A stretch of DNA of 64,000 bases from an uncultured Gammaproteobacteria bacterium (GTDB lineage: Bacteria; Pseudomonadota; Gammaproteobacteria; Steroidobacterales; BM003), in assembly GCA_963823435.1 (NCBI GenBank), contig CAWGLN010000001.1:138365-202364 (forward strand). Direction: 5' to 3'. The notes under the pieces are model-generated. The model was given only the letters and a program-made list of their open reading frames with translations. It ran no database searches and was not told the DNA's origin. The translations under genes and the position numbers were made by a program. Position 1 is the stretch's first letter. Every line of letters starts with the position of its first letter. This document shows positions 7,624 to 46,352 of this stretch, in pieces.

Positions 7624-7672
7624 GTCCGGCGGTTGGCCGGAGTGTTGTAATGAACATCAAACCCGGAGTGGA

Positions 7673-8674
7673 ATGAACATGAATCTGACAAGCACTTACC
7701 TGGGATTGGAGCTGCGCTCACCTATTGTGGTGTCCGCCTGCCCGCTTTCCGAGGATGTTGCGAATATCGTCAAGATGGAGGATCACGGTGCGGGGGCTGT
7801 TGTGCTGTTTTCCCTGTTCGAGGAACAAATTCGGCGGGAGAACGCACTCTACCAGGAAGTCATACAAAACACTGAAGGCGCCTTCGCCGAAGCTGCCGAC
7901 TATTTCCCCGGGGCGGAAGACTATCAATCCGGGACCGCCGAGTACCTGGATCTCATCCGTCGGGCCAAGGAACGCGTGGAGATGCCTGTTATCGCCAGCC
8001 TGAACGGCACCTCAGCCGAGGGCTGGATTGAATACGCCAGGCAACTTGAACAGGCGGGCGCTGACGGTATAGAGCTGAACGTTTTCTATATCCCGGCAGA
8101 TATATCCCTGACCGGCGTGGAGGTAGAACAGCGCTACCTGGATATCGTGAAACTGGTGAAGTCCACCGTGAGCATTCCTGTGGCGATAAAGCTGAACCCC
8201 TATTTCAGTGCAATGGGTAATACGGCCCATAAGCTGGCCGAAGCGGGGGCCGACGGCCTGGTTTTTTTCAATCGTTTTTACCAACCGGATTTTGACATCG
8301 AGAATCTCCGGGTCATCAGCGACCTGCGCTACAGTCGGCACGACGAAATACGCCTTCCGCTACTGTGGATCGCCGCCCTGCACGGCCGGGTGAATGCCTC
8401 CTTCGCGGCAACCAGTGGCGTTCAGGGAGCGACTGAAGTTGTGAAATACCTGTTGGCTGGCGCCGACGTGGTGATGACGGCCTCATCACTCTATCGCCAT
8501 GGAATAGAACACCTGGAAACCCTGGGTCGGGACCTTGAGTCCTGGATGCAGCGGCTCCAGTTCGATTCGGTTGCCGGCTTCCGGGGAGTACTCAGTCAGC
8601 AGAACATTCGCGACACCACGGCCTACGAACGCGCAAACTATATTCGCATCATGGAGCGAGCCCGCCTGGCCTGA
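7673..8674 (+). CDS. Dihydroorotate dehydrogenase-like (PyrD/PreA-family) FMN protein
   Basis: ORF 7538..8674. The likely start is the ATG at 7673 (MNMNLTSTYLGLELRSPIVVSACPL), with GGAG upstream. It looks like a class-1 DHODH/DPD-like TIM barrel (ADGIELNV, IPVAIKLNP). It has no Fe-S domain. Confidence 0.75.
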   Translation: MNMNLTSTYLGLELRSPIVVSACPLSEDVANIVKMEDHGAGAVVLFSLFEEQIRRENALYQEVIQNTEGAFAEAADYFPGAEDYQSGTAEYLDLIRRAKERVEMPVIASLNGTSAEGWIEYARQLEQAGADGIELNVFYIPADISLTGVEVEQRYLDIVKLVKSTVSIPVAIKLNPYFSAMGNTAHKLAEAGADGLVFFNRFYQPDFDIENLRVISDLRYSRHDEIRLPLLWIAALHGRVNASFAATSGVQGATEVVKYLLAGADVVMTASSLYRHGIEHLETLGRDLESWMQRLQFDSVAGFRGVLSQQNIRDTTAYERANYIRIMERARLA

Positions 8675-19428: not shown

Positions 19429-21336
19429 TCAAGCCGGGCCGTCCTTCCCTGCATAACCAATTTGCCGGAGCGACTCGCCAATTTCTTCAAGAATGGCGGG
19501 GTCGTCAATAGTCGCAGGCATTTTCCACGGCTGTGAGTCGGCGATACTGCGCATGGTGCCACGCAGAATCTTGCCGGAACGCGTCTTGGGCAGGCGGTTA
19601 ACCACCACCGCCTTTTTGAATGCCGCCACCGGGCCGATACGGTCGCGTACCAGTGCAATGACCTCGGCCACTACCTGATCCGGATCTTTCTTCACGCCTG
19701 ACTTGAGGACCAGCAGTCCCAGCGGCACCTGGCCCTTCATATCATCCGCAACACCCATCACCGCACATTCGGCCACATCCGGATGACTGGCCAGCACCTC
19801 TTCCATGGCGCCGGTGGACAAGCGATGACCGGCTACGTTTATGATGTCGTCGGTACGTGACATCACGTGGGCATAGCCATTGTCATCAATCATGCCGGCG
19901 TCGGCGGTAAGGTAGTAGCCGGGGAACTCCGCCATATAGGCCTGGTGCCAGCGCTTGCGCGCATTCCACAGCGTGGGAAAAGCTCCCGGCGGCAGTGGCA
20001 GCTTGACCACCAGGGCGCCGATCTTGCCTTGCTTAACCTGTTTGCCCGACTCATCCAGCACCTGCAGGTTCCAGCCAGGCACGGGTTTGCCCGCTGAACC
20101 ATGCAAGGGTGGAAACTGTTCCAGACCCAGGCAGTTGGCGCAAATGGCCCAGCCGGTCTCGGTTTGCCACCAGTGATCCACCACCGGCACCTGCAACTTC
20201 TCCTCGGCCCATTCCAGGGTAGCTGGATCACTGCGCTCACCGGCCAGGAACAAGGCCCTGAGTGAGGATATGTCGTACTGCTTGATCAAGCCGCCCGTGG
20301 GATCCTCTTTCTTGATCGCACGAAAAGCGGTGGGCGCAGTGAACAGGACATTGACCTTGTGATCCTGAATCACTCGCCAGAACACCCCCGCATCCGGGGT
20401 CCCGACGGGTTTACCCTCGTACAGGATGGTGGTGTTTCGGTTGAAAAGCGGCGCGTAAACAATGTAGGAATGCCCCACTACCCAGCCTACATCGGAGGCA
20501 GCCCAGTAAACGTCGCCGGGCTTGACGTTATAGATGTTGCGCATACTCCAGGCAAGCGCCACGGCATGCCCGCCATTGTCGCGCACCACGCCCTTGGGTT
20601 CTCCCGTGGTCCCGGAGGTATAGAGTATGTACAGCGGATCGGTCGCCTCTACCGGCACACAGGGATGAGGCGTGGCATCGGCCATACATTCGGCCCAATC
20701 CAGGTCGCGACCGGGGATCATTGACGCGGTCACCTGCGGGCGCTGCAGCAGCAGGCAAAATTCCGGTTTGCACTCTGCCAGTTCGATGGCCTTGTCCAGC
20801 AAGGGCTTGTAGTCGACAGTCCTGCCCGGTTCAATACCGCAGGAGGCGGTAAGCACCGCCTTGGGCGCGGCATCGGTGATACGCACCGCCAATTCACTGG
20901 GTGCAAAGCCGCCAAATACCACGCTGTGTATTGCACCCAGCCTGGCGCAGGCCAACATGGCGATAGCCGCTTCCGGCACCATGGGCATATAGATAATTAC
21001 CCGGTCGCCCTTGACCACACCCCGCCCCGCCATTACTCCGGCGAGCCGTGCGACCTGGTCCTGTAATTGCGCATAGGTATAGGTGCGCAGTTGTCCGGTT
21101 ACCGGTGAGTCATAGACCAGGGCCAATTGCTCGCCATACCCGGCCTCGACGTGACGATCCACCGCGTTATAACAGGTATTGAGCCGGCCGCCGGCAAACC
21201 AGTGATACTCGGGTGCGTCCGAATCATCCAGCACCCGGTCCCACTTCCTGTCCCAGTGAATCGACTCCGCGACCTCGGCCCAGAATCCTTCCGGATCCTC
21301 CATGGAACGTCGGTAGCTGTCGTTGTAGGCACCCAT
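19429..21336 (-). CDS. Propionate-CoA ligase / short-chain acyl-CoA synthetase (PrpE/AcsA-like)
   Basis: ORF 19429..21396. The ATG at 21336 has an AGGAG Shine-Dalgarno 6 nt upstream (MGAYNDSYRRSMEDPEGFWAE). It has the AMP-binding motifs YTSGTTGEPKG, WQTETG and [11 protein letters not shown]. It is a paralogue of the acs gene at 22966. Confidence 0.85.
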   Translation of the reverse strand: MGAYNDSYRRSMEDPEGFWAEVAESIHWDRKWDRVLDDSDAPEYHWFAGGRLNTCYNAVDRHVEAGYGEQLALVYDSPVTGQLRTYTYAQLQDQVARLAGVMAGRGVVKGDRVIIYMPMVPEAAIAMLACARLGAIHSVVFGGFAPSELAVRITDAAPKAVLTASCGIEPGRTVDYKPLLDKAIELAECKPEFCLLLQRPQVTASMIPGRDLDWAECMADATPHPCVPVEATDPLYILYTSGTTGEPKGVVRDNGGHAVALAWSMRNIYNVKPGDVYWAASDVGWVVGHSYIVYAPLFNRNTTILYEGKPVGTPDAGVFWRVIQDHKVNVLFTAPTAFRAIKKEDPTGGLIKQYDISSLRALFLAGERSDPATLEWAEEKLQVPVVDHWWQTETGWAICANCLGLEQFPPLHGSAGKPVPGWNLQVLDESGKQVKQGKIGALVVKLPLPPGAFPTLWNARKRWHQAYMAEFPGYYLTADAGMIDDNGYAHVMSRTDDIINVAGHRLSTGAMEEVLASHPDVAECAVMGVADDMKGQVPLGLLVLKSGVKKDPDQVVAEVIALVRDRIGPVAAFKKAVVVNRLPKTRSGKILRGTMRSIADSQPWKMPATIDDPAILEEIGESLRQIGYAGKDGPA

Positions 21337-21423
21337 GGCAGACTCCTGCATCAATATTCGGTTACTCGAACGAGCCGGGGCATTCCGCTGGTTCATGCCA
21401 AGGCTGGAATAATCGGATCGTAG

Positions 21424-22965: not shown

Positions 22966-24913
22966 ATGAGCGAAGTACACGTCTACCCAATCAATAGCGC
23001 AATTGCGAAATCCGCCCATATGGATGAAGCCGGCTATAAGAAAGCGTACCGGCAGTCGGTGGAGCATAACGAGGATTTCTGGGCGGAAGCGGGCAAGCGC
23101 CTGGACTGGATAAAGCCCTACTCCAAGATCAAGGATGTCTCGTTTGACAAAGAGAACCTGCGTATACGCTGGTATTACGATGGCGTTCTCAACGTATCGG
23201 CCAACTGCATAGACCGGCACCTGGCCGACCCGGAAAGACCAGGTAGCGCTTATCTGGGAAGGCGACAATCCGGCCGAAGATGCCCATATTACGTATGGCG
23301 AATTGCACCAGCACGTTTGCCGGTTCGCCAACACCCTGAAATCCCTGGGCGTAAAGAAAGGTGACAGGGTCACCATCTATATGCCGATGATCCCGGAAGC
23401 CGCCTACGCGATGCTTGCCTGCTCACGTATCGGCGCCGTGCATTCAGTGGTATTTGGCGGCTTCTCGCCGGACTCCCTGGCAGGAAGAATCATCGACTGT
23501 GATTCACACATCGTCATAACCGCTGACGAGGGTCTGCGTGGCGGACGCACCATTCCCCTGAAGAAAAACGTGGACGCCGCGGCCGCCATTCCGGGTTGTG
23601 AAATACTTAAAACCGTCCTGGTGGTGCGCCGTACCGGCGGCAAGGTGGCCTGGACGGAAGGCCGTGATCACTGGTATCACGAAGCGAGCGCAGACCAGGG
23701 AGGGGATTGCCCCCCGGAACCCATGAACGCGGAAGATCCGCTGTTCATACTCTACACCTCCGGTTCGACCGGACAACCCAAGGGTGTGTTGCATACCACC
23801 GGTGGGTACCTGGTATACACATCCCTTACCCATGAACTGGTGTTCGATTACAAACCCGGCGATATCTACTGGTGCACGGCAGATGTAGGCTGGGTTACCG
23901 GGCACAGTTATATCGTTTACGGACCCCTGGCCAATGGCGCCACCTCGCTGATGTTCGAGGGCGTGCCTAACTACCCCTCGTTCTCGCGCTTCTGGGAGGT
24001 GGTCGACAAGCACAAGGTGAATATCTTCTACACCGCGCCCACGGCGATACGCGCCCTGATGCGAGAGGGCGCCGACCCGGTGAAGAAGACTTCGCGCAAA
24101 AGCCTGCGTCTGCTTGGAACCGTGGGCGAACCTATAAACCCTGAGGCCTGGGAATGGTACTACCACACGGTAGGCGACGCCCGCTGCCCCATCGTAGACA
24201 CCTGGTGGCAAACCGAGACCGGCGGTATTTTGATCAGCCCGCTGCCCGGCGCCACGGCCCTCAAGCCCGGCTCTGCGACCCGGCCGCTATTTGGCATCAA
24301 ACCGGCCTTGGTGGACAACGAGGGCGGAGTCCTTGAAGGAGCCAATGAAGGCAATCTCATCATCACAGATTCCTGGCCCGGCCAGATGCGATCGGTGTAT
24401 GGCGATCATCAACGCTTCATAGATACGTACTTCTCAACCTTCCCGGGAAATTACTTCACCGGCGACGGAGCCAAGCGTGACGAGGACGGTTATTACTGGA
24501 TAACCGGCAGGGTGGACGATGTCCTGAATGTCTCCGGCCATCGTATGGGCACGGCCGAAGTGGAAAGCGCGCTGGTGTCTCATCCCAAGGTCGCCGAGGC
24601 GGCTGTGGTAGGCTATCCCCACGACATCAAGGGCCAGGGTATTTATGTTTACGTTACCCTGGTGGCGGATGCGGAGCCCACCGATGAATTGAAGAAGGAA
24701 CTACGCAACTGGGTGCGCAAGGAAATCGGAGCTATCGCCTCCCCGGATCTTATCCAGTGGGCGCCGGGGCTTCCAAAAACGCGTTCCGGCAAAATCATGC
24801 GCAGGATCCTTCGCAAGATCGCGGCCAACGAATTCGAAAACCTGGGTGATACCTCTACCCTGGCCGACCCGGAAGTGGTTAAACAGTTGATCGAGAATCG
24901 CGCGAATAAATAA
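22966..24913 (+). pseudogene. acs: Acetyl-CoA synthetase, one apparent +1 indel (extra C in the CCC run near 23230)
   Basis: The ATG at 22966 has a GGGAGAG Shine-Dalgarno (MSEVHVYPI...NCIDRHLAD). The protein then continues in the +1 frame as [34 protein letters not shown]... (ORF 23303..24913) with [19 protein letters not shown] and [12 protein letters not shown]. Confidence 0.9.
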
Positions 24914-25598: not shown

Positions 25599-25617
25599 CC
25601 AGGCGCCTGGTCAGGCC
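25592..25617. terminator. Perfect 26-bp palindrome shared by the convergent crbR and crbS 3' ends (candidate bidirectional terminator)
   Basis: ggcctgaccaggc|gcctggtcaggcc. It contains the TGA of crbR (25596-25598) and the TCA, reverse complement of TGA, of crbS (25611-25613). Confidence 0.4.
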
Positions 25618-28600
25618 TTTTCCCTACCCTGTAACAAGCTGGTCAGAGTCGCCCTCAAGGCCGCCGGTTTCACGGGCTTCTGCAACATCAAGAAGCCCGC
25701 CTCGCGAATCAACAATTTCACTTCATCGGAATTATCAGCGGTAATGAATGCACCTGGCACAGCCAGCCCCAGGTGATCGCCAAGAATCCGCACCACGTCC
25801 AGGCCGTTCTCTTGATCCAGGCGGTAATCGACCAGCATGGCGTCCGGGACCAGACCATCGGGCAGTAGTTGCAGCAACTCTTCGCTCGACCTGGCCCCGA
25901 TGACCTCGCACCCCCAACGCTGCAGCAAGGCCTGCATACCGTCCAGGATTTCCTGCTCGTTATCCACGCAAACCACCGTGGCGCCTGCAAGACGACCAAT
26001 CGGAATCTTGGGAGCTTCCACTTTTTGCCCCAGCACGACCTGGTTGACCGCCAGCGGCAAACTCACGGAGAACATACTCCCCTTGCCAAGCTGGGACCGC
26101 ACCAGCACTGTATGACCAAGCATTCGTGCAACGCGATCAACGATAGCCAGTCCGAGGCCGAGACCTTTCTCCTTGCCTCCGGGACCCAGCTCCAGGCGCT
26201 TGAACTCGACAAAAATATCCTGCAGGTTCTCCTCCGGTATGCCCTGGCCCTGGTCCCAGACCTGCACTTCTACCTGATCACCCCTTAGCCTCGCAGCAAC
26301 CAGTACCTTGCCATTTGCGCTGTAGCGAAAGGCATTGGCAATCAGGTTCTGCAATATGCGCCGCAAGAGCTGTCTGTCGGATTTCACCACGCAGTCGATA
26401 CCAGATCCCCGCAGCTCTATTTCCAGGCCGCGTGCCCGGGCCAGCGGGGAAAACTGCTCATGCAGGACCTGTAACAGGTCAGCCAGGCGGAACTGACTGA
26501 TCTCCGGCACCAGGGCGCCGCTGTCGAGCTTGGAAATATCCAGTAGCCCACCCAGCAAGTCCTCGGCCGCGGCCAGGCTGTTATCCACCCGGTCCACCAG
26601 CTTGGCCTGCTCCTGCGGCAGGCTTTCCGCCTGCTCAGCCAGCACTGATATAAACAGGCGGGCCGCATTCAAAGGTTGCAGGAGATCATGTGTCGCCGCA
26701 GCCAGGAAACGTGTCTTGCTGCGGTTGGCCGTCTCAGCCTCGGCCTTGGCTGCCTCCAGGTCATGCATGGCCTTGTGAAGCTCGTTGGTGCGCTCTCGCA
26801 CCCGCTGCTCCAGGTTGGACTTGGCCTCCTCCAGCGCAAGCTCGGCCCTGCGACGACTGGTAATATCCTGGAACATGGCATACAAACCGCTTACCTGTTG
26901 CTGCTCGTCGAACTCCGGGATGTATGTCCCTATGCAATACACGCTCTCCCCCGAGCGGGTCTGTATTGCGAGATCGAATTCCTGCCTTTGACCTGACAAG
27001 GCCCTCTCCAGATACTCCGAACGTTCCAGCAACTGGCCCTCGGATAGCACCTCGTCAACGCGCTTGCCTATCACCTGCTCGGCAGGAAGATTCACGTAAT
27101 CCAGGTAACTCTTGTTGGCGAATCGGAAATATTGATCCTTGTCCAGGTAACTGAGCATTAACGGAGCATTGTCCGTGTACATCCGGATATTGTGCTCACT
27201 CTCACGCAAGGCCTCCTCTACCCGCTTGTGCTCGGTAATATCCGTAAAGGTAGAAACATAGCCCCCACCCGGCATTCGGTTGCCGCGTATCTCGATTACC
27301 TGGCCATCCGGACGCTGACGCTCGTAGCGGTAATTTTCACCTCCCCGCATGCGTTCCAGTCGCCGTTCCACGTGCTCCGGCACCTCGCCAGGACCACACA
27401 GACCTCTTTCGGCGTTGAATCGAATCAATTCCTCAACCGGCCGACCCACAAAGACCATTCCTTCCGGGTAATTGAGTAGTTCAAGGTAGCGGCGATTCCA
27501 GCCCACTATCCGCAGGTCTTTATCCACTACGGCAACGCCCTGGCTGATGCTGTGCAGAGTCGCCTCCAGCAAGCGCCGGTTGAAGGTCACCGCATCGGCT
27601 GTCTGATCCAGCAAAGCCAGCATGTCGCCAATCGCCATGCCGGTTTTTCTCAAGGCAGCCGTGAGAACGGCCCGCGCCGAGGCTGATCCGATGGCGCCCG
27701 CCAGCAACCTCTCCGTGAAGCGGACGATTTCGCCATCGGCAAGTATCCCGGGATCCAGCGCCACACCCTTGTCTTTCTCGTACTTCTCGAAGGAGCGTTG
27801 CGTGTGGCGGCGCCCGACAAAGCGGGAAGCCAGGGCCTGCAAGTCTCTTACCGTGGCATGCTGCTGCCAGCGAGAGGGCAAGGACGGCGGGCGCCTGCGC
27901 GGATCCTCCACAAATGCCACGGCCTGCAACTGCTCACGCAGCGAGGGCGCCCACAAGGCAGAACCCACCACCAGTCCGATCACGTTAAGCGAAAGGGACA
28001 GGGCCACCCCGTGGGTGATGTGGGACATACCGCCCAACCCGAACAAGGCCTCGGGCCTGAGCCACTGCATGCCCCATATGCCGTTTGCTATCCACTGCAG
28101 GTCGCCACCGGCGGAACGCGCCAATCCGGGCAGCAACAGGGTATAGGCCCATGCCCCAAAACCCAGTCCCAGCCCCAGCAGGGCGCCACGTCGACTGGCA
28201 TTACGCCAGAACAAACCGGCAATAATCGCCGGGGCAAACTGGGCGACGGCGGCAAAAGACAGGAGGCCAATAGAAGCCAGTCCAGCCCCCTGGCCGGTCA
28301 ATCTGTAATACAGGTAGGCGGCCAGGGTCAGGGCAACAATGGTTGCCCGCCTGACATTCAGCAAAATTCGGCTCATGTCCTCGCGCAAGTGCAAGCCAAG
28401 AGACTTTGCGCCGAGCAGCAAGGGCAGGACGATATCGTTGCTTACCATCGTGGCCAGGGCCACGGTGGCCACGATTACCATTCCGGTAGCCGCAGAGAAC
28501 CCACCCAGGAAGGCGAACAGACCCAGCGTCTGGTTTCCATGCGCCAGGGGCAAGGCCAGTACAAATGTATCGGCGTTGATCTGGCCGGTGCCGAACACTT

Positions 28601-29504
28601 TCAAGCCAGCCATGGCGATCGGGGGTACCGCCAACATGACCACGGCCAGGTAAAGCGGAAACAGCCATCGAGCCATGCGCAGGTCTTTTTCTCCGGCGCA
28701 TTCAACCACGGCAACATGGTATTGCCTGGGTAGGCAAAACATGGCCGCCATGGCCAGAACGGTCTGGGCGAAAAACCCGCCGGGCATTTCCTGGGGAAGA
28801 AACAAGGAACTCATGTCCCGATCAATGACCATGGTCTCAAGCGCTTCCTTGTACCCACCAAGTACCCCGTACATGGCAAACACCGCCACTGCGACCAGGG
28901 CCAACAACTTGACCACAGACTCGGTCGCAATGGCCAGCATCATGCCGCGATGGTGTTCGGATGCGTCTATGTGTCGGGTACCAAAAAGGATGGCAAACAC
29001 CGCCAGCAACAGCGCCAAATAGAATGCTGTTGACGGGGTCCCGCCGCCGGCCGCCGCTGTACTACCAGTTAGAACATCGAAGGAGGTGGCCACGGCTTTG
29101 AGCTGAAGGGAGATATAGGGAATGATCCCGACCACGGCACTGACGGTCACCAGCACAGAAATACCCCTGGACATGCCGTAGCGAGCCGCAATGAAATCCG
29201 CGATGGTAGTGAGATTCTGCTTCTTGCTGACTTCTACAATCCGTCGCAAGACCTCCCATCCAAATACCCACATGAGGATAGGCCCGAGGTAAATCGGCAC
29301 ATAGCCCCAACCGGTAGATACCGCGGTACCCACCGCACCGTAAAAAGTCCAGGACGTGCAATAGACTGCCAGGGAAAGGCTGTACACCAGCGGCCCGTTT
29401 AATGGTCGCTTGCCTGCCGCATCCCTGCTATCGCCCCAGTAGGCAATCGCAAAGAGAAATCCAACATAGGCAAGTGACAGGGCAATCAGGATGCCTGTCT
29501 GCAA
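25611..29504 (-). CDS. crbS: Hybrid sensor histidine kinase with an N-terminal sodium:solute-symporter-like domain (CrbS/CbrA architecture)
   Basis: 1297-aa intact ORF with a TTG start preceded by AGGGGAGAG. The order is about 13 TM helices of SSF type, two PAS domains, HisKA (ATHDLLQPLNA), HATPase (GLGLGLAIVDR) and a C-terminal REC (VVCVDNEQEILD...LVDYRLD). Confidence 0.85.
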   Translation of the reverse strand: MQTGILIALSLAYVGFLFAIAYWGDSRDAAGKRPLNGPLVYSLSLAVYCTSWTFYGAVGTAVSTGWGYVPIYLGPILMWVFGWEVLRRIVEVSKKQNLTTIADFIAARYGMSRGISVLVTVSAVVGIIPYISLQLKAVATSFDVLTGSTAAAGGGTPSTAFYLALLLAVFAILFGTRHIDASEHHRGMMLAIATESVVKLLALVAVAVFAMYGVLGGYKEALETMVIDRDMSSLFLPQEMPGGFFAQTVLAMAAMFCLPRQYHVAVVECAGEKDLRMARWLFPLYLAVVMLAVPPIAMAGLKVFGTGQINADTFVLALPLAHGNQTLGLFAFLGGFSAATGMVIVATVALATMVSNDIVLPLLLGAKSLGLHLREDMSRILLNVRRATIVALTLAAYLYYRLTGQGAGLASIGLLSFAAVAQFAPAIIAGLFWRNASRRGALLGLGLGFGAWAYTLLLPGLARSAGGDLQWIANGIWGMQWLRPEALFGLGGMSHITHGVALSLSLNVIGLVVGSALWAPSLREQLQAVAFVEDPRRRPPSLPSRWQQHATVRDLQALASRFVGRRHTQRSFEKYEKDKGVALDPGILADGEIVRFTERLLAGAIGSASARAVLTAALRKTGMAIGDMLALLDQTADAVTFNRRLLEATLHSISQGVAVVDKDLRIVGWNRRYLELLNYPEGMVFVGRPVEELIRFNAERGLCGPGEVPEHVERRLERMRGGENYRYERQRPDGQVIEIRGNRMPGGGYVSTFTDITEHKRVEEALRESEHNIRMYTDNAPLMLSYLDKDQYFRFANKSYLDYVNLPAEQVIGKRVDEVLSEGQLLERSEYLERALSGQRQEFDLAIQTRSGESVYCIGTYIPEFDEQQQVSGLYAMFQDITSRRRAELALEEAKSNLEQRVRERTNELHKAMHDLEAAKAEAETANRSKTRFLAAATHDLLQPLNAARLFISVLAEQAESLPQEQAKLVDRVDNSLAAAEDLLGGLLDISKLDSGALVPEISQFRLADLLQVLHEQFSPLARARGLEIELRGSGIDCVVKSDRQLLRRILQNLIANAFRYSANGKVLVAARLRGDQVEVQVWDQGQGIPEENLQDIFVEFKRLELGPGGKEKGLGLGLAIVDRVARMLGHTVLVRSQLGKGSMFSVSLPLAVNQVVLGQKVEAPKIPIGRLAGATVVCVDNEQEILDGMQALLQRWGCEVIGARSSEELLQLLPDGLVPDAMLVDYRLDQENGLDVVRILGDHLGLAVPGAFITADNSDEVKLLIREAGFLMLQKPVKPAALRATLTSLLQGREKA

Positions 29505-29553
29505 GTGGAAACTCTCCCCTATTGAGTTGAGTTGATCAGGCGCAGCTAGATTC

Positions 29554-29718
29554 TACGGAGCCTCTGATTTGGTCTGGACGAAGTAGGTCGCTGGCGAAAA
29601 GATTCGGGTTCAAGGCGCCAATCGCACGGAATAGCGAGCTATTGCGAAGATTGGCAACATAGAAGCTGGAGCTTTTAGCCGCGAGATACAAGTTCATGAC
29701 CAGATCAGAGACTCCCTA
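29554..29718. repeat. MITE-like imperfect-palindromic element, copy R1 (A-to-B orientation)
   Basis: The termini tacGGAGCCTCTGATTTGGTC ... GACCAGATCAGAGACTCCcta are inverted repeats. Its two halves are partially complementary along the whole length. It is homologous to the copies at 33928..34104 (inverted) and 34829..34988. Confidence 0.8.
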
Positions 29719-29946
29719 ATACCATGGTCTAATAAGGCCCGCAAGCACAGGGTGGATTCGAAGCATTCGCCGCAACCCGACGATTATCGTCAGAAAAACG
29801 GTCATTACAGATAGACGGAATAACGCCCGGTCGGTCCCGGTTCAGCCCTCTAAGACTAAAGTAGGACTGCGCTGGCATAAGACCCTCAGCTAGATTGATC
29901 CTCGTTATAAATAGGGTCATAGCCACCAAAAGAGGGGGAGCGTCCC

Positions 29947-30207
29947 ATGAGTGGAAATAGCAAAGGGGCTGAATACTGGAAAAGAAACCTGAGCCTGATG
30001 ACGATCTGTCTGGTCATCTGGTTCGTAGTTTCCTACGTATTCGGAATTATTCTTGTAGAACCTCTGAACGCGATCAAGATCGGCGGGTATAAGCTCGGTT
30101 TCTGGTTTTCGCAACAGGGATCTCTCTACATTTTCGTCGTACTGATCTTCTACTACGCATCCAAGATGAATAAGTTGGATCGCGAATTCGACGTTCACGA
30201 AGACTGA
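29947..30207 (+). CDS. DUF4212 small membrane protein (putative solute:sodium symporter small subunit)
   Basis: 86-aa ORF with two TM helices, lying immediately upstream of an SSS-family permease. This is the conserved pairing for the family. Confidence 0.8.
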   Translation: MSGNSKGAEYWKRNLSLMTICLVIWFVVSYVFGIILVEPLNAIKIGGYKLGFWFSQQGSLYIFVVLIFYYASKMNKLDREFDVHED

Positions 30208-30220
30208 GGGGGGCGTAGCA

Positions 30221-32001
30221 ATGGATCTCAAGACATTAACCTTTATTGTCGTGGGCAGCTACTTTCGCCCTCTACATCGCAATTGCAATTTATTCCCGTG
30301 CCAAGAGCACAGGGGATTTCTATGTTGCAGGCAAGGGTATTCACCCGGTAGCAAACGGCATGGCCACGGCAGCTGACTGGATGTCGGCAGCATCATTCAT
30401 TTCCATGGCGGGCCTGATAGCCTTCCTTGGCTACGGCGGTTCGGTGTTCCTGATGGGCTGGACGGGCGGTTACGTGCTGCTCGCCATGTTGCTCGCACCC
30501 TACCTGCGCAAGTTCGGCAAGTTCACGGTTCCGGAGTTCATTGGTGAGCGTTATTACTCACAAAGCGCCAGGATCGTGGCTGTCATCTGCCTGATCGTTG
30601 CCTCTATCACTTACGTGATCGGGCAGATGAAAGGCATCGGTGTGGCGTTCTCACGATTCATGGAAGTGGATTTCACCCACGGCCTGATGGTGGGCATGGG
30701 TATCGTGTTCATTTATGCCGTGCTCGGCGGTATGAAAGGCATCACCTATACCCAGATTGCCCAGTACTGCGTGTTGATTTTCGCCTACACGATTCCGGCG
30801 ATCTTCATCTCCTTGCAGCTGACCGGCAATCCTATCCCGCAATTGGGATTGGGTAGCACCATGGCGGATGGCAGCGGCGTGTACCTGTTGGACAAGCTGG
30901 ATCTGATCGTGACCGACCTGGGTTTCAGGGAATACTCGACATCGTCCAACGGGAATATGCTTAACATGTTCCTGTACACACTGTCCCTGATGATCGGTAC
31001 CGCGGGTCTGCCCCACGTCATTATCCGTTTCTTCACCGTACCCAAGGTGCGGGACGCCCGTGCGTCAGCCGGCTGGGCATTGGTCTTCATCGCGATCCTG
31101 TACACCACAGCTCCGGCCGTGGGCGCCATGGCTCGCCTGAACCTGATCAATACTATCCAGACCGGTCCGGTAGGCTCTCCCACAGGCAATGTGCTGATAT
31201 CAGAACTGCCTGACTGGATGGGTCGCTGGCAGGCTACCGGCCTGCTGAACTGGGAGGACAAGAACGGCGATGGCCGTATCCAGTTCTACAATGAAGCAGG
31301 TATGGGTGACAAAGCGGCGGCCTATGGCTGGGCTGGCAATGAGATGACCAAGGTGGACAATGACATCATGGTGTTGGCCAACCCGGAAATCGCCGGTCTG
31401 CCCAACTGGGTGGTTGCCCTGGTAGCTGCAGGCGGTATTGCGGCGGCGCTGTCCACTGCGGCCGGTCTGTTGCTTGCCATCTCCTCGGCAATTTCTCATG
31501 ACCTGCTCAAGGGCGTGTTCATGAAGGATATTTCCGAGAAGAACGAGCTGATGGCAGGTCGTATCGCCATGGCCGGCGCCATTGTCGTGGCGGGGTACCT
31601 GGGTCTGAATCCACCCGGCTTTGCGGCACAGGTGGTGGCTTTGGCCTTCGGTCTGGCGGCCTCGTCGATTTTCCCTGCCCTGATGATGGGTATCTTCGAC
31701 AAGCGCGCCAACAGCAGCGGCGCCGTGGCTGGTATGTTGACCGGTCTGGGCTCGACCTTGCTGTACATCTTCTGGTTCAAGGGATGGTTCTTCATTCCTG
31801 GCACCGAGATGGCGGCCAATAACGCCTGCCAACTGGATCCTGGGTATTTCACCCGAGGCCTTTGGTGCGGTGGGTGCATTGCTTAACTTCGCGGTGGCTT
31901 ACGCGGTATCACACAATACTGCACCGCCTCCCGAGCACATCCAGCACCTGGTGGAAGACATTCGTATTCCGCGTGGCTCTGGTGGAGCAGCGGCTCACTA
32001 A
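30221..32001 (+). pseudogene. Sodium:solute symporter (SSS family, large subunit of the DUF4212-associated type, ActP-related), two apparent +1 indels near 30257 and 31827
   Basis: The ATG at 30221 gives MDLKTLTFIVVG. The frame then shifts into ORF 30246..31886 (ATFALYIAIAIYSRAK...VANGMATAADWMSAASFISMAG). The C-terminus (NWILGISPEAFGAVGALLNFAVAYAVS...GGAAAH*) is in a third frame that ends at 32001. Confidence 0.85.
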
Positions 32002-32026
32002 TCACACCCTGATGGTGTAATACAGC

Positions 32027-32064
32027 GGGGGGCATCCTGAACGGGATGTCCCCCGTTTCCTTTC
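32027..32064 (+). terminator. Candidate rho-independent terminator after the symporter
   Basis: 11-bp stem ggggggcatcc / ggatgtccccc (one G-U pair) with a 6-nt loop, followed by the T-rich gtttcctttc. Confidence 0.5.
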
Positions 32065-32088
32065 AGACTTCACCTGCAAGAATCTGCA

Positions 32089-33930
32089 ATGATTGAACTG
32101 ACTGAAATTCTCGACTTTTTCCTGGCCCACCCGCCATTTGACCAATTGCAGCGCGAGCAACTCAGGGAATGTCTGCGTGGGCTGCAAGCCGAATATTTTC
32201 CCAAAGGCGGTCAGATTCTGGAAATAGGGCAGGAAAATCACTTGCTGCACATCGTGCGCAGTGGCGCGGTGGAACTTCACGACAGTGACAATAGCCTGGT
32301 CGCCCGAATGAGTGAGGGCGAATCCTTCGGTTATATCTCGTCTGCTCAGCGGAAAACCGGTACGCTACCGCGCCGTGGCGGCCGAAGACGCGTTGATCTT
32401 CCACCTGCCAGCCGATTCGTTCGGGCAATTGAGGCGGGCGGCGCCTTCACTGGATCACTTTTTTACCGAGGCGTTTGCCGAAAGACTGAACATGGCGATC
32501 CGGGACAAGGGACCGGAGTGAGCTTGCCGCAACACGGCTTGGCGACCTGGCCCGGCGTGAATTGGTGCAAATGGACAGTGCCTCCTCGGTCGCGGACGTG
32601 GCCGCAATCATGACCGAGAAAGGCGTTTCTTCAATCTTGCTGAGCGAAGGTGGTGCCGTTGCCGGCATCCTGACCGACAAGGATCTGAGGCGACGGGTTG
32701 TTGCCACCCGCCTGCCCTACGACACGCCGGTGCGGGACATCATGACCCACGACCCGGTAATCGCCAGCCACGACTCCAACGTGGCCGAAGCGCTGCTGAT
32801 CATGATGCAGAGAAACATCCATCACCTTCCGGTGCTTCGGGACAAGGTACCTGTCGGCATGCTCACGCTTGCCGATCTGCTGCGCGCAGAAGCGGAACAC
32901 CCCATTTATATGGCCGGCGACATCCTCAAACAAGGCGACGCCGAAAGTATCGCCAGGGTGAGCAAGCGCCTGCCTGAACTGATTCAGAGAATGATCGGCG
33001 CGGACGCCACGGCCGACCAGATCGGCAAGGTCGTTACCACCGTGACCGATGCCATCACCAAGCGATTGATCCAACTGGCAATCACTGAAACTCGGCCCAC
33101 CACCGGTAAAATTCGCCTGGCTGGCACTGGGGTCCCAGGGTCGCCAGGAGCAGTCAGCAAAATCTGACCAGGACAACGCCTTGCTGCTGGATGATTCCTT
33201 CCTGCCTGAACACGATGCCTACTTTGAACAGCTCGGCAAGTTCGTCTCTGACGGACTGGATGCTTGTGGCTACGTATATTGTCCGGGCGATGTGATGGCC
33301 TCCAACACGCGGTGGCGACAACCCCTTAAAGTGTGGAAAGGCTACTTCAGACGCTGGATAGCAGAACCCGAGCCCAAGGCACTCATGTACGCCAATATAT
33401 TCTTCGATCTCAGGATCGTTGAAGGCCATGACGCACTGGTAAAGGAACTCAAGGAACATATCGCCGACCTGGCGCGCAAAAATCATTTCTTCCTGGCAAT
33501 GATGGCCAAGAATGCCATGGCATTTCAGCCTCCCCTTGGCTTTTTCCGCCAATTCGTTCTGGAAAAGGGTGGCGGACACGGTGATTCCCTGGATCTGAAG
33601 CACCGGGGCGTCATACCGATAGTGGAATTGGCCCGTATCTATTCCCTGGCGGGCGGTGAGGTCCGGGTCAACAGCCGACGCAGGCTTCGGGCCGCCGTAT
33701 TGACTGGCCAGATTACCGAGGGCACGGGCCGTAGTCTGGAAGACGCGCTGGAACTGATAGACTACGTTCGCATGAACCACCAATGGGAAGAAATGAAAAA
33801 CGGTCTGCCACCGAGCAACTATGTCCCGCCGAGCTTCCTGTCTCCCTTGCAGCGACAACACCTGAAGGCCGCCTTCAATGTGGTACGCACCGCCCAGGCT
33901 GCACTGTTGAACCGGTTTGGGTTGAACTAG
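32089..33930 (+). pseudogene. cNMP-binding / tandem CBS / DUF294 nucleotidyltransferase-domain protein, three apparent +1 indels near 32341, 32510 and 33090
   Basis: Four consecutive ORF pieces in frames 1, 2, 0, 1 read as one protein. They are the cNMP-binding domain (32089.. and 32312..32521), CBS pairs (32562..33167: VSSILLSEGGAVAGILTDKDLRRRV, NIHHLPVLRD), and DUF294 (GPPPVKFAWLALGSQGRQEQSAKSDQDNALLLDD... through 33181..33930). Confidence 0.82.
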
Positions 33931-34104
33931 GGAGCCTCTGATCTATTCATGAACCTGTATCTTGCGTCTAAAAGCCCCAGCTTCTGCGTTGCCAATCTTC
34001 GAAGTAGCCAATCTTCCAGTACCACTACTACGTGTGATTGGCGCCTTGAATCTGGCTCTTTCGCTCGCAATCTGCTAAGCCCAGAATAAATCAGAGACCC
34101 CCCA
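33928..34104. repeat. MITE-like imperfect-palindromic element, copy R2 (inverted relative to R1)
   Basis: The first ~82 nt match the reverse complement of the R1 right half with about a dozen mismatches: ctagggagcctctgatct...ttgccaatcttcg. The shared core is attggcgccttgaa. Its first three bases (TAG, 33928-33930) are the stop codon of the DUF294 gene. Confidence 0.8.
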
Positions 34105-34116
34105 GGAAGTACATCC

Positions 34117-34808
34117 TTGCTCCGATCGTTTATTGACAGACTGGCCAGGAAGCGGCTTTTAGCCAGCGCAAACTGGGAGCCCATGCGCGGGTTCCTGCTT
34201 TCAGAACCGCCTGACCGCCAGCGGTTCTGGAGGGACGTGGAACTGCTTGTCGCGGACCTCGAAACCACCGGACTGGATGCCAGGCAGAACCACATTGTCA
34301 GTTTTGGCTGGGTACTTATTTCAGGAGGCCGGATACATCTGGACCAGGCGCAACATATCGTGGTCCGATCAGGCACACCAATGAATCAAAGCGCCACCAT
34401 CCATGGTATTTTTGACAGCCACGTGGCCCAGGGAGTGACCATGGAATCGGCCCTGGCTGAACTTCTGGATCAGCTTCGTGGCAGGGTCCTGGTGCTGCAC
34501 CATGCCCCGCTGGACCAGGCTTTTCTAAACCAGGCCTGCATCCAGGTCTGCGGCCAGAAACTGGTGACGCCGATAATCGACACCATGGCCCTGGAGAAAG
34601 ACCCGGTTGGATCGACGTGACCAGCCGATCCAGCCAGGAATGCTGCAGGCTTGGCGCCGTGCGCGAACGCTATGGACTCGGCCCGATACGGGCGCACAAC
34701 GCCTTGACCGATGCCTTGGCAACGGCGGAATTGTTGCTGGCGATAATTGCCCATTCCGAAAGGGGCGGAGAACCTCTTCGATTGAAACACTTGCTTGCGC
34801 GTATTTGA
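34117..34808 (+). pseudogene. DEDDh 3'-5' exonuclease (DnaQ/epsilon-like), two apparent +1 indels near 34603 and 34646
   Basis: Exo I is VADLETTGLD and Exo II is HHAPLDQAFL, both in ORF 34117..34620. LDRRDQPIQPGML lies in frame 2. Exo III (AHNALTDALATAELL) lies in ORF 34617..34808. Confidence 0.8.
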
Positions 34809-34828
34809 GGACGCGCAAGCCTGACATT

Positions 34829-34988
34829 CCGGGAAGCCTCTGATCTTGCCCGGACTAAGTAGCTTGCTGGCAAACCGCAATTTTGAGGGGCCAATCTTAA
34901 GTGCCGGAGCCGGCTCGCCAGGACCGGCAAGATAGAAGCCCGGTCTATGTCGCAAGACACATTCATGACCGAATCAGAATCTCCCTAG
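34829..34988. repeat. MITE-like imperfect-palindromic element, copy R3 (same orientation as R1)
   Basis: gggaagcctctgatcttg...aagtagcttgctggc...ttcatgaccgaatcagaatctccctag aligns with R1 end to end. Its terminal CTA (34985-34987) is the stop codon (TAG) of the minus-strand KKAPA gene. Confidence 0.75.
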
Positions 34989-35584
34989 CGCTTCCTGCCG
35001 GCTTTTTTCTTGGCCGGAGCCTTCTTGGCCGGAGCCTTCTTGGCCGGGGCCTTCTTGGCCGGGGCCTTCTTGGCCGGGGCCTTCTTGGCTGGGGCCTTCT
35101 TGGCCGGGGCCTTCTTGGCCGGGGCCTTCTTGGCCGGAGCCTTCTTGGCCGGGGCCTTCTTGGCCGGGGCCTTCTTGGCCGGGGCCTTCTTGGCCGGAGC
35201 CTTCTTGGCCGGAGCCTTCTTGGCCGGAGCCTTCTTGGCCGGGGCCTTCTTGGCCGGAGCCTTCTTGGCCGGAGCCTTCTTGGCCGGGGCCTTCTTGGCC
35301 GGAGCCTTCTTGGCCGGGGCCTTCTTGGCCGGAGCCTTCTTGGCCGGGGCCTTCTTGGCCGGGGCCTTCTTGGCCGGAGCCTTCTTGGCTGGAGCCTTCT
35401 TGGCTGGAGCCTTCTTGGCCGGGGCCTTCTTGGCCGGGGCCTTCTTGGCTGGAGCCTTCTTGGCTGGAGCCTTCTTGGCTGGAGCCTTCTTGGCCGGGGC
35501 CTTCTTGGCCGGAGCCTTCTTGGCGGGCAAGGCCGGAACTTCTGCTTCCGACTCCTTTGCCACTTCCTCGATATCCAGACCCAC
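34985..35584 (-). CDS. Lys/Ala/Pro-rich (KKAPA)n histone H1 / AlgP-like basic protein; start uncertain (GTG at 35584 proposed; could instead be a C-terminal extension of adk)
   Basis: The minus-strand frame reads ...[21 protein letters not shown](KKAPA)x~35 KKKAGRKR*. All nucleotide variation among the repeat units is synonymous in this frame only. No ATG lies downstream of the adk stop. The GTG at 35584 is in frame, with AAGG 5 nt upstream. Confidence 0.6.
35011..35520. repeat. Tandem repeat: 34 exact-length 15-bp units (tggcYggRgccttct), plus degenerate units on each side
   Basis: Counted directly: 16 units c/G, 12 c/A, 5 t/A and 1 t/G. Only two positions per unit vary. All three plus-strand frames are also open, which produces the LLGRG and AGAFL shadow ORFs. 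Confidence 0.97.
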
Positions 35585-35627
35585 CGCTGCCTTGAGGGCC
35601 TTTTCTGCCTGCAGGCGCGCCTCAGAT

Positions 35628-36281
35628 TCAGCCAGGGCCGCCTTCAGACTCTTCTGCAGATCGCTTGAAAACGACCTCGGAATCACCCACGGCATCCACG
35701 GTATAAAGAATGCCCTGCTCACTGTAGTAGTCAACCAAAGGTCGCGTCTGACTTTCATAGACCTTGAGACGATTCTCGATGGTGGCCTCGGTGTCGTCCG
35801 CGCGCCGATGCAGGCGCCTGCCACATTTGTCGCAGACATTCTCCAGGATGGGCGGCGAGGTGTAGTAATTGAACACTGCCCCGCAACTACCACAACTCAA
35901 CCTGCCGGTCAGCCTTTGCATCAGGATATCGCTGTCCAGATCCATCAACAGCGTTGCCTGCAAAGGCAGACCGATCTGCTCCAGCATCCCGTGGAGGGCA
36001 CGGGCCTGGGCCAGGTTCCTGGGAAAACCATCCAGGATAAATCCCTTGCTGGCGTCTGGCTGCCGTAGCCTTTCCTCAATTATGCCCAGCACCAACTGGT
36101 CGCTGACCAATTGACCCGCGTCCATGGTGGTCTTGGCCTGGAGACCCAGTTCCGACCCTGAGGCTACCGCCTCGCGCAGCAAATCACCCGTGGAAATCTG
36201 GGGAATGGCATATTTTGTAACCAGTTTCTGAGACTGGGTACCCTTTCCAGAGCCCGGGGCACCAAGCATGACGATTCTCAT
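35628..36281 (-). CDS. adk: Adenylate kinase (last 13 codons as written are atypical; see findings)
   Basis: [16 protein letters not shown] (P-loop), [10 protein letters not shown], and a LID with CGSCG...CDKCG (Zn-type). The annotated frame ends [13 protein letters not shown]. The +1 frame instead encodes the Adk-like C-terminal helix [12 protein letters not shown]. Confidence 0.9.
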
Positions 36282-43396: not shown

Positions 43397-43609
43397 CGCA
43401 GCTCGATCATGGGTAGCCGACTTGCAGGTGGGCACTCTGATCCGGGATTGCTTGCAACCATTCTGCCTGGCTGTGGTCAGTGTTAGCGTGGGCCTTGCTT
43501 GAGCGTGTACCATTCAGGTTGCGGGCTGGGTCTCGACTTTTCGTGTTTTAGTGTTATAGTTAACCACAACACCTATGACAGAACGATTGAATCTAAAGGA
43601 ACTTTGACC

Positions 43610-45045
43610 ATGCGCCAGATTTGCCGAGTGTTTCTGAGCCTGTGTTTCGCCTTGCTGTCCATGCAACAGGCGGGCGCGGCCTCCCTGCTGGATGTCTACC
43701 AGAGTGCCCTGATCAGTGACCCCTCCATACGGGAGGCAGAGGCCAATCGCATGGTGGCCTATGAGCAAAAGCCCCAGGCACGCAGCCAGTTCTTGCCCCA
43801 GGTCAATCTGACCGGCAATTACCAGACCCGCAACCGCGAACGGTGACAATGACCAGGTGCAGTATACGGAAAATGGACTGGTCGCCATTCCCAACACTTT
43901 CGAGACCGGTTCGGATGACTGGAATCTGGATGTCTCCTTGCGCTCAGACACTGTTCCGCTGGGACCAGTACCAGACCTATAAACAGGCAGACAAGGTGGT
44001 AGCGAAAGCTGATGTGGACTACGAGATCGCCCGCCAGGGCTTGATGCTCAAGGTCTCCGAGCGGTATTTCAATGTCCTGGCGGCCAAAGACACCCTGGGC
44101 GCAGCAGAAGCAGCCCTGGGGGCCACTGCCCGGCAATTGGAACAGGCCGAGAAGCGTTTTGAGGTTGGCCTGATCGCCATCACCGACGTAAAGGAAGCCC
44201 AGGCCGCCTACGACAACACCACCGCCGCAGTAATCGCTGGCAAGCGCCAGCTGGCCACGGCACTTGAGTTGCTGCGTGAATTGACCGGTGAGTATTACTC
44301 GGAATTCCAGAAACCGGGCGATGATTTACCCCTCGCGATCCCGGCTCCCCAGGACCAGCAGGCCTGGGTCGATACGGCCCTGCAGCAGAATCTGAGCCTG
44401 GTTTCCAGCCAGATTTCGGTAGATATCGCCAGGGACGGTATCAAGATACAACGCGGTGGTCATTACCCCACCCTGGATTTGATCGCCAACTATCGCCTGG
44501 ATGATTCCGCCGGTAGTACCACCAGTACCGGTCCGGATCCAGATCCGACCGCTCCACCCGGATCAACGGTGACCTCATCTTTTGATACCGCCCAAAACGT
44601 TACCTCCGATTTGATAGGCATCCAGCTTATTGTTCCGATTTACTCGGGTGGCGGCACCTCGTCGCGGGTCAACGAGTACGTATACCGCCACAGGGCCGCC
44701 AAGGAAAGTCTGGAGCGGGTGATGCGCGAGACTGAAAGAACCGCGCGTGACGCCTACCTGGGCATCATGGCCGAGATGGCACGGGTGAAGGCGCTTAGAC
44801 GTGCAACGGAATCCAGCCAGACGGCCCTGGAGGCTACGGAGGCGGGATTTGAGGTGGGCACCCGTACTACCGTTGACGTACTGGCCTCCCGCCGCACCCT
44901 GTTCGACGCCGAAACCAATTACGCACGTGCCCGTTACGACTACATTCTGAATATCATTCGCCTGAAACAAGCTGCGGGAATACTCAATGAGGAAGACCTG
45001 GCCCGAATCAACGAATGGCTGGATTTGACGGTGAGTACGCGCTAG
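43610..45045 (+). pseudogene. tolC: Outer-membrane efflux channel TolC, two apparent +1 indels near 43841 and 43944
   Basis: The ATG at 43610 has an AAAGGA Shine-Dalgarno and a signal peptide (MRQICRVFLSLCFALLSMQQAGA). The gene reads through three frames: LLDVYQSAL...NYQTRN, then GDNDQVQYTENG...LDVSLR, then QTLFRWDQYQTYKQA...FEVGLIAITDV.... Confidence 0.85.
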
Positions 45046-46352
45046 GAGGCGTCGGGGAAAAGATCCGCGAGCAGCGGCTGCAGCAAACCAAGCAGTCGAG
45101 GCAACGTCTCCCGATTCTCGGCCAGCACTTTCAATCCCGCGGTAGCGAGTTGCGCGCGCGCCGCGGGATCATCAAGTAACACCTGGACCTCGGCCGCAAG
45201 ACCGGGCGATCCCTCGACAACCCGCATGGCCCTGGCCTGCAAAAACAACTCGGTAATATCCGCAGCATTGAAGTTATGCGGGCCAACCACCACCGGCACA
45301 CCAAGGGAGGCAGGCTCCAGCAGGTTGTGACCGCCGATGGACACCAGGCTGCCGCCCACGAAGGCCACATCCGAGGCCGCATAAAACATCATCAACTCCC
45401 CCAGGGTATCCACCAGCAGCACCTCGGTTTGCGCCTCCGGGGACTCGCCCAGACTGCGGCGGCGGCAGCTAAAACCGGCTTTCTCCACCAAGGCCGCCAC
45501 CCCGTCGAATCGCTCTGGATGCCTGGGTACAAGTATCAAAAGGGCCTGCGGATTATGCTCCAGGAGCCGCCTGTGGGCCTCAAGCACCAATTCTTCCTCG
45601 CCCTCGTGGGTGCTGGCCGCCAGCCAGACCGATCGATCCGCCATATGGGCCTTGCGGTAGGCCTTGCCCCGCTCCGCCACGTCGGCGGCTGACTCAATGC
45701 CAAACTTGATGTTTCCCACAACGTGGGTTCGCAGAGGATTGGAGCCTATGGAAAGAAATCGTTCGGCATCCTGCTTGCTCTGGGCTGCTATTACTATTCC
45801 ATGCGACAGCGTCTGGCGAAATAACTCTACCAGTAGGCGGTACTTCTTCACGGACCGTTCAGAAACCCGGGCATTGGCCATGACCAGGGGAATGCCGCGA
45901 CGACCACATTCATGGTAAAGATTTGGCCAGATCTCGGTTTCCATGATGATCGCCAGGCGAGGATTGAAGCGATTAAAGAATCTCTTCACCGCGCCCGGCA
46001 GATCATAGGGCACATAGCTATGCATGACGGTGTCCCCAAACAGCGCACGCGCCCTGTCCGCGCCGGTGGGGGTCATGGTCGTAATGACCAGGGGCACCCC
46101 CGGCTTGCGCTCCATCAGGAGCGAGATCAGAGGCGCCGCGGCCTGCACCTCGCCGACTGATACAGCATGTACCCAGATACTGGGCTTGTCGGTCCGCGCC
46201 CGACCAAAGCCCAGGCGCTCGTCCAGGCCTTTCCAGTAACCGTGGTTGGAAAATCCTTTTTTTATCAGGAAAGCGAATACCAGCGGTGCCACGAGCAGCG
46301 ACAAGATGACGTAGGCGAAGCGCAGCAGCCCGGCCTTGAGATCACGGTTCAC
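45042..46352 (-). CDS. waaA: 3-deoxy-D-manno-octulosonic acid (Kdo) transferase
   Basis: 436-aa ORF. It has an N-terminal membrane anchor, [11 protein letters not shown], and the GT30 C-terminal domain ([17 protein letters not shown]). Confidence 0.9.

Follow-up and report, generated by a model that had tools for sequence, protein, structure and literature searches.

A polymorphic, hairpin-forming miniature transposon with a 4-bp target duplication in the acetate-type locus of an uncultured gammaproteobacterium

The insertion sequence IS5 duplicates 4 bp of its target with the consensus C(A/T)A(G/A) (PMC11677980). MITEPsy1 of Pseudomonas syringae, a miniature transposable element with inverted repeats (MITE) that derives from the IS5-family ISPsy2 and has been trapped while transposing, has the ends GGAAGGTCTGAAAAAGCC and a 4-nt duplication at CTAG or YTAA (PMC3189936). 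We analyzed three repeats, R1, R2 and R3, in a 64,000-nt stretch of DNA from an uncultured gammaproteobacterium (hereafter the window), where they occupy intergenic gaps of an acetate-type locus and had been picked out in a preliminary description made from the sequence letters. The repeats belong to a MITE with a 4-bp C/T-T-A-G/A duplication that is polymorphic between close strains and forms part of a very widespread group. R1, R2 and R3 are very probably copies of a 159-160-bp non-autonomous DNA transposon of this kind, most likely one mobilized by the IS5 family. Like MITEPsy1, the element is short, non-coding and multi-copy, with inverted repeats starting GGA…TCTGA and a 4-nt duplication at CTAG/YTAA; MITEPsy1 is mobilized in trans and is reported to insert at the 3′ ends of genes. 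MITEPsy1 differs in being 100 nt rather than 159-160 nt long, no long-range sequence similarity between the two was noticed, and its partner is ISPsy2, whereas none was found here in the DNA pieces that were fetched. The 4-bp CTAG/YTAA duplication together with the GGA..TCTGA ends thus points to IS5-family behavior, as for MITEPsy1. Compared by eye, which is a weak comparison, the ends are of the GG/GGA… type in the present element (GGAGCCTCTGATTAATTC), in MITEPsy1 and in IS5 (GGAAGGTGCGAA).

Other described repeats share the general architecture. The Correia (NEMIS) elements of Neisseria are MITEs of 104-157 bp with inverted ends and a long hairpin, intergenic and often co-transcribed, with a functional central module (an IHF site) and an unknown autonomous partner (PMC3184786). 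The ERIC (IRU) elements of Enterobacteriaceae are imperfect palindromes of ~127 bp that are intergenic and transcribed and can affect mRNA stability (PMC3184786). REPINs, mobilized by RAYTs, resemble the present element in forming hairpins, in their strand asymmetry, in their vertically maintained populations and in their tight length distribution, but they consist of two short REP palindromes and lack a target duplication, unlike the element with 4-bp duplications described here. The Correia elements are restricted to Neisseria, and no core common to classes with different termini has been reported for them; their termini are unrelated to those of the window element, and their flanking duplication is TA, not 4 bp. 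ERIC is likewise flanked by TA, and its central inverted repeat differs from that of the window element. A blastn search (word size 11) gave no match at E ≤ 1 in 5,426 E. coli genomes, although very short similarities would escape it. The initial label of a MITE/ERIC-like family was right as to a mobile family; the likeness to ERIC and Correia elements is one of kind only, and ERIC has no sequence relation to the window element.

R1 (29557-29715, 159 bp, family-profile E = 1e-46) and R3 (34833-34984, 152 bp, E = 3e-19) read from their A end to their B end on the + strand, and R2 (33931-34101, 171 bp, E = 6e-41) does so on the - strand; the profile search agrees in this with the orientations first proposed. 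A profile built from the three copies matched exactly R1, R2 and R3 in the 64-kb window, with E values from 1e-49 to 1e-58 and no fourth copy, and the three-way alignment had a mean column identity of 76%, in line with the mutual homology that had been noted. Because the same profile also matched the reverse strands of R1, R2 and R3, the elements are palindromic, although imperfectly so. Their inverted termini read GGAGCCTCTGAT… at one end and …ATCAGAGRCTCC at the other. The terminal 14-mer GGAGCCTCTGATYT, with up to two mismatches, occurs at six sites in the window against 0.74 expected; five of the six are element ends, the sixth (46124-46137) lies outside any element, and the right end of R3 is too degenerate to match. 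The preliminary description had given the inverted termini as (T)AGGGAG, and the inverted ends stand, but the outer TA is part of the duplicated 4-nt target.

The long hairpin that had been proposed for each element was recovered in two of the three. R1 (-79.4 kcal/mol, z = -8.2 vs dinucleotide shuffles) and R2 (-77.6 kcal/mol, z = -7.6) form hairpins of ~75 bp that span the whole element; the fold of R3 is weak (z = -1.9), which indicates that R3 has decayed. The conserved apical hairpin core lies at 29603..29670 (+) in R1 (CAAGGCG…AATAGC-loop-GCTATT…GCAAC; covariance model 85.2 bits, E = 4e-21) and at 33976..34056 (-) in R2 (65.8 bits, E = 2e-15), and the core model found no match in R3 at E ≤ 0.1. 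An 81-nt arm of R2 is 86% complementary to R1, with ~11 differences where about a dozen had been counted. The internal duplication reported in R2 is also present: GCCAATCTTC occurs twice, and a strain that is 98% identical (L001) is 12 nt shorter there, R2 having a 12-nt apical insertion relative to it. A site scan found no promoter-like or terminator-like sites inside the elements.

To compare occupied and empty sites, contigs of related strains were found by look-up of the DUF4212 protein encoded beside R1. Two strains, L117 (98.6% identical) and L113 (~86-89%), carry the empty R1 site …GAAGTTAGATT-CTAA-TACCATGG… (GATT CTAA TACC), and the filled site in the window reads …GCAGCTAGATT-CTAC-[159 bp]-CTAA-TACCATGG…. 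R1 was inserted with duplication of 4 bp, and one copy of the target changed later: by comparison with the empty sites, the left copy (29553..29556) is CTAC, one change from CTAA, and the right copy (29716..29719) is CTAA. The target-site duplication, left as a question in the preliminary description, is 4 bp (CTAG/CTAA). At R2, the B-end junction (33927..33930) is CTAG, of which TAG is the stop codon of the DUF294 frame 33181-33930, and the A-end junction (34102..34105) is CCAG on the + strand, a degenerate CTAG. R3 has the degenerate CCGG on its left (34829..34832) and CTAG on its right (34985..34988), whose CTA, read as TAG on the - strand, terminates the open reading frame (ORF) 34985-35893. 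R3 is absent from L001. At the R2 site, the same strain carries a tandem head-to-tail pair (7349-7524 and 7531-7691) whose middle junction 4-mer is common to both elements, as expected if a regenerated target is hit again; this arrangement suggests either repeated insertion into the regenerated target or unequal recombination. Short-read contigs of sister strains (L116 and L120, each at position 1, and L115) begin in or right at R1, consistent with a multi-copy element that disrupts assemblies.

The junctions of the family as a whole carry the same signature. In 27 of 78 non-redundant elements the same 4-mer stands at both junctions, compared to 12.6 expected (permutation p < 2e-4). The identical 4-mers include CTAG (13 cases), CTAA (6), CAAG (2), TTAA (2), TTAG (1) and CTTG (1), and hence non-palindromic pairs such as CTAA/CTAA, CAAG/CAAG, CTTG/CTTG and TTAG; a direct association also links the outermost positions of the junctions (Fisher p = 2e-4 and p = 0.002). 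In about one third of the elements, the stop codon of a flanking gene lies inside a junction 4-mer, as at R2 (TAG of DUF294) and R3 (the stop of a repeat protein). Because TAG or TAA is present in the target, on one strand or on both, insertions often fall exactly on stop codons, which they restore.

The distribution of the family was assessed by an exact-pattern scan for the B-end motif in one genome per species, which matched more than 103 stretches. Among the matches listed, almost all come from uncultured Gammaproteobacteria; the carriers belong to Thiotrichales, Chromatiales, Sedimenticolaceae, Woeseiaceae, Competibacteraceae, Lysobacterales, Arenicellales and Methylophaga, and include symbionts of Solemya, Riftia and Lamellibrachia. 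A profile search of the listed loci recovered 83 full-length copies with unrelated flanks in ~60 species-level assemblies, the great majority of them 158-160 bp long, and several assemblies hold at least 5-8 copies. Identity is 0.835 between copies of one assembly and 0.675 between assemblies, and the greater likeness of copies within an assembly indicates amplification within genomes. R1 and R2 represent two subfamilies that also occur together in another metagenome-assembled genome (MAG). In the TIR1 class, conservation across ~60 species is highest in the outer 12-16 bp; in the set of 62 copies used below, invariance of the B end is an artefact of the search pattern, which did not select for the other regions. 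No match to the family was found in viral contigs.

Several genomes also harbor deletion derivatives of 38-55 bp that consist of only the two ends (L007 at ~6095-6141, L015, L017, L065, L072, L025, and L121 at 2981-3040). Several loci of one MAG, as well as other genomes, have the same internal junction (…AATTC|ATGAATT…), and these mini-elements could represent an amplified mini-subfamily or recurrent deletion of the hairpin. A GC-rich element (L050, ~900-1130) has two inverted core hairpins between shared termini (…TTAACCCGGCAACAATATATGTCGTGTTCAG…). Elements of ~108 bp with window-type termini and unrelated interiors were seen in L066 (~170-280) and, on the reverse-strand reading, in L084 (~1465-1575); the MAGs carry the labels Cryomorphaceae and Nitrospirota, and mosaic elements or contamination during binning may be the cause.

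Covariation across the 62 copies, a check left over from the preliminary description, confirmed the hairpin. RNAalifold predicted 45 pairs, 35 of them with compensatory double changes. Paired cells amounted to 92.4%, against 76.3% in shuffles, and the covariation score was 0.488, against 0.193 in shuffles (none of 500 reached it) and 0.06-0.09 in slid controls. The A-to-B strand, or forward strand, folds better than its complement in 61 of the 62 copies (-74.8 vs -57.2 kcal/mol), and its hairpin pairs contain 321 G·U against 54 A·C. Among copy-private changes in Watson-Crick pairs, 47 gave G·U and 17 gave A·C (p = 2e-4). Mutation bias was considered as the source of this excess and rejected, for the unpaired columns show no excess of C>U/A>G and no equivalent transition bias (41 vs 45); the biases expected from replication, transcription and known deamination would, moreover, be predicted to oppose the observed G·U excess. 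The covariation, together with the excess of G·U over A·C, means that the hairpin pairing, the element length and the ~50-nt apical core are maintained by selection acting on one strand.

The insertions are also oriented with respect to their surroundings. With gene orientations taken from a codon-usage gene caller, tandem flanking genes run antisense to the forward strand in 23 cases and sense in 6 (p = 0.002), and the B end is the neighbor of a gene 3′ end in 34 cases, the A end in 15 (p = 0.009). The flanks are C-rich on the forward strand at 53 of 70 genome loci (p = 1e-5) and at 54 of 76 independent metagenome loci (p = 3e-4), where the bias in gene orientation is weaker (21 to 11). Either replication or transcription may drive this strand bias.

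The apical core is shared by elements whose termini differ from those of R1-R3. In a plasmid collection, core-bearing elements were found in Ralstonia, Cupriavidus, Comamonas, Mitsuaria and Variovorax, with an apex of ~52 nt in common (nhmmer E = 5e-8 to 2.5e-4); the Ralstonia element has the termini TCCRCTGAATCAYTGAAAT and the flanks CTAG/CTAG, and that of Comamonas has the termini AACGTGTTTACGATCTC and the flanks TTAG/TTAG. The core covariance model has a covariation score of 0.521 vs 0.189 and also matches elements with other termini inside gammaproteobacterial loci. A core-only pattern scan of metagenomes matched at least 120 stretches, and 85 of those listed had enough flank to be read. 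Window-type ends occur in 22 of these 85, and the termini of the other 63, on inspection, fall into at least 15-20 other classes with flanks CTAG, TTAA/TTAG or TCA. The length is 159-160 (±1) bp in nearly every terminal class, and in the metagenome set the forward strand is the better-folding one for all 21 of the window-type elements tested and all 40 of the others. Invariant in the core are two unpaired stretches of an internal loop, CAAGGCG and GCAACGC, together with the apical stem AATAGC/GCTATT, which co-varies to CATAGC/GCTATG. Inspection by eye gave no fit of the conserved bases to a promoter (sigma-70 or sigma-54), an IHF or attC site, a hammerhead motif or a CRISPR repeat.

The element represents a new family within a kind already known, with properties that we did not find described. 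In line with the preliminary description, which recognized no named family, the repeat apparently has no name: Rfam gave no match in the window at the gathering threshold, none on R1 at E ≤ 10 and none on the Ralstonia element at E ≤ 1, and a literature search found no description of the family or its core, matches to sequence strings being unrelated primers and keywords leading only to MITEPsy1 and one general review. Nor did that search find another MITE described with compensatory upkeep of a hairpin on one strand, with a ~50-nt core and a length of 159-160 bp under more than 15 termini, or with a bias towards the locally C-rich strand.

The reading that we prefer combines a conventional transposition step with a role for the hairpin. 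The element, with terminal inverted repeats of ~20 bp (GGAGCCTCTGATTAATTC…) and no coding capacity, inserts at C/T-T-A-G/A tetranucleotides and duplicates them, as IS5-group transposases and MITEPsy1 do; it is most likely mobilized in trans, by a DDE transposase of the IS5 family whose gene lies elsewhere in the genome, and the single-stranded hairpin of the selected strand may aid propagation or persistence. Several observations weigh against this account. The comparison of R3 with L001 does not show a clean duplication, the window having 8 extra nt to the left of R3. The junction 4-mers differ in 51 of the 78 elements, so that mutation after insertion must be assumed. The 1.6 Mb of fetched DNA, which covers carrier genomes in pieces of 8-20 kb, showed none of 25 terminal sequences as an IS-sized pair, and tblastn with E. 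coli IS5 InsH gave no match in it; the plasmid collection gave only chance matches to window-type termini. In the window itself, as had been said before, no transposase was seen: a Pfam scan of 48 of its 53 predicted ORFs, which covered all but five short ones of 60-100 aa, matched no transposase family at the cut-offs used. A plain DDE-mobilized MITE, furthermore, needs neither selection on a one-strand hairpin nor a fixed length of 159-160 bp, and the simple model is in this respect incomplete. Two kinds of candidate for an autonomous element were examined and set aside: lone B ends turned out to be mini-elements, and IS-sized end pairs were either neighboring MITEs or, in L036, a long but unrelated inverted repeat. 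The latter (3576-5252) is large, with arms of several hundred bp, and adjoins two MITE copies.

The strand asymmetry raises the alternative that a tyrosine HUH enzyme mobilizes the hairpin in the form of single-stranded DNA, in the manner of REPIN/RAYT systems or an IS200/IS605-type PATE, with the core as recognition hairpin and CTAG/TTAA/TCA as cleavage or target site instead of a real duplication. Better folding of the forward strand in every class tested, a core and a 159-160-bp length that stay constant while the termini differ, an orientation biased with respect to local GC skew at both sets of loci, and the failure to find a DDE partner in the fetched pieces would all fit such a scheme. 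With HUH transposition, however, no duplication arises and the right-hand site would come as a copy from the donor, whereas the empty R1 site has one CTAA and the filled site two, and the two junctions vary together (CAAG/CAAG, CTTG/CTTG, TTAA/TTAA, TAAA/TAAA) with significant Fisher tests. The conserved outer 12-16 bp of the TIR1 class are, in addition, what sequence-specific binding of the ends predicts, and derivatives made of the ends only exist in several copies. We consider HUH mobilization improbable. Our initial idea was a MITE of the IS630/Tc1-mariner type (Correia or Stowaway type) that duplicates TA only, the elements then being GGGAGCC…GGCTCCC. Both junctions most often have TA as their central dinucleotide, a TA duplication in a CTAA target would suit the commonest unequal pair (CTAG/CTAA, 8 cases), and the R1 site by itself does not separate the two models. 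Under that model, however, the fourth left base would belong to the element and the fourth right base to the flank, and the two should be independent; they are strongly associated (14/18 vs 16/59, p = 2e-4), and all four T-starting right junctions pair with T-starting left junctions (p = 0.002). This co-variation of the outer positions excludes a duplication of TA only, and CTAG, CTAA and TTAA are the exact 4-nt target set reported for MITEPsy1 (PMC3189936). The idea was dropped on the junction statistics, and we rate it as a long shot.

A different kind of explanation is that the repeats are not mobile at all and represent locus-specific duplicated regulatory DNA or a host RNA gene family, such as an operator, a terminator or a small RNA. 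The presence of all three copies in intergenic gaps of one locus and a hairpin conserved with covariation would suit it. The preliminary description had itself pointed to duplicated regulatory DNA should the copies be confined to this locus and align to a conserved operator; what we found instead are copies dispersed over unrelated contexts in dozens of genomes, and presence/absence polymorphism with target duplication, including the empty R1 sites, which contradict it. The elements hold no promoter-like or terminator-like sites and have no Rfam match even at E ≤ 10, and R3 is decaying. Of all the readings, we regard this one as the least credible.

A broader proposal is tentative, and we would put it forward as somewhat short of an even chance. 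The ~50-nt asymmetric apical hairpin (…CAAGGCG-stem-AATAGC-loop-GCTATT-stem-GCAACGC…) and the 159-160-bp chassis around it may constitute a functional single-stranded DNA or RNA module that defines an unrecognized superfamily of hairpin transposons in Gamma- and Betaproteobacteria, the termini having diversified around an invariant core. If so, the transposases would presumably have diversified along with the termini, and the one-strand selection and the bias towards the C-rich strand would reflect a step tied to replication or transcription, for example hairpin extrusion for excision or synapsis, or loss of copies with the stable hairpin on the lagging-strand template.

In the window, the elements sit in an acetate-type locus (GC ~59%) whose genes were assigned by Pfam scans of the ORFs. 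These encode an acetyl-CoA synthetase (19429-21396, -), a second AMP-binding enzyme, a LuxR-type response regulator, a hybrid histidine kinase of 1297 aa (25611-29504, -, start codon at 29504), a DUF4212 protein with an SSF symporter (29947-31886, +), a DUF294 protein (ending at 33930, +), an RNase_T-type exonuclease (from 34117, +) and an HC2/AlgP-like KKAP-repeat protein (34985-35893, -), and further genes of the locus encode PPi-PFK and H+-PPase. R1 occupies the region between the divergent kinase and DUF4212-SSF genes, upstream of the kinase start codon by 49 bp and of DUF4212 by 228 bp; R2 lies between the DUF294 and exonuclease genes; and R3 separates the exonuclease gene (+) from the HC2/AlgP-like gene (-). 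The three copies would be recent or old passengers that may alter local expression. R1, in what would be the control region of the divergent kinase and DUF4212-SSF genes, is the copy with the best chance of affecting expression, since it is absent in a sister strain, and R2 would place a hairpin of ~75 bp inside the DUF294-exonuclease transcription unit.

The leader upstream of DUF4212 (29830-29946, …CCCTCTAAGACTAAAGTAGGACTGC…GCTAGATTGATCC…) is near-invariant even in the relative that is 86-89% identical, and could serve the DUF4212-SSF operon as a conserved operator or leader. A degenerate partial A end had been suspected within it, at 29840-29885, but the 62-copy profile found no match there at E ≤ 10 with filters off; because these positions are near-invariant in relatives that lack R1, they belong to the conserved leader of the DUF4212 operon. 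Elsewhere in the locus, the acetyl-CoA-synthetase-like genes at 19429-21396 (-) and 23303-24913 (+) have opposite orientations, which explains the inverted repeats I1 and I3; these are unrelated to the MITE. A 15-bp tandem repeat array of more than 30 units (34990-35560) encodes the KKAP-type repeats of the HC2/AlgP-like protein. Its orthologue in L001 (8400-9806) is a single 468-aa gene with N-terminal adenylate kinase domains, relative to which the window gene appears split by a frameshift. Compared to L001, the region 30259-34646 has scattered single-base indels outside homopolymers, and the DUF294 and exonuclease genes of the window are split; the symporter and kinase genes of L001 are split by single-base indels, as is a TolC-like gene of the window (43499-45045). 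These gene-splitting indels are probably long-read assembly errors rather than signs of pseudogenes.

For the study of these organisms, the elements matter in that they break short-read assemblies and differ between strains that are 98% identical. Copies located at control regions and stop codons of the acetate-utilization locus are candidate causes of strain-level differences in expression and useful strain markers, and the group is an abundant unannotated source of false structured-RNA candidates in proteobacterial and metagenomic intergenic DNA. The invariant structured core, the fixed length, the interchangeable termini, the single-strand selection and the orientation bias suggest that hairpin formation helps some DDE-type MITEs to spread or survive. 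Cultured Cupriavidus and Ralstonia carry relatives of the element, and the role of the hairpin is directly testable in them.

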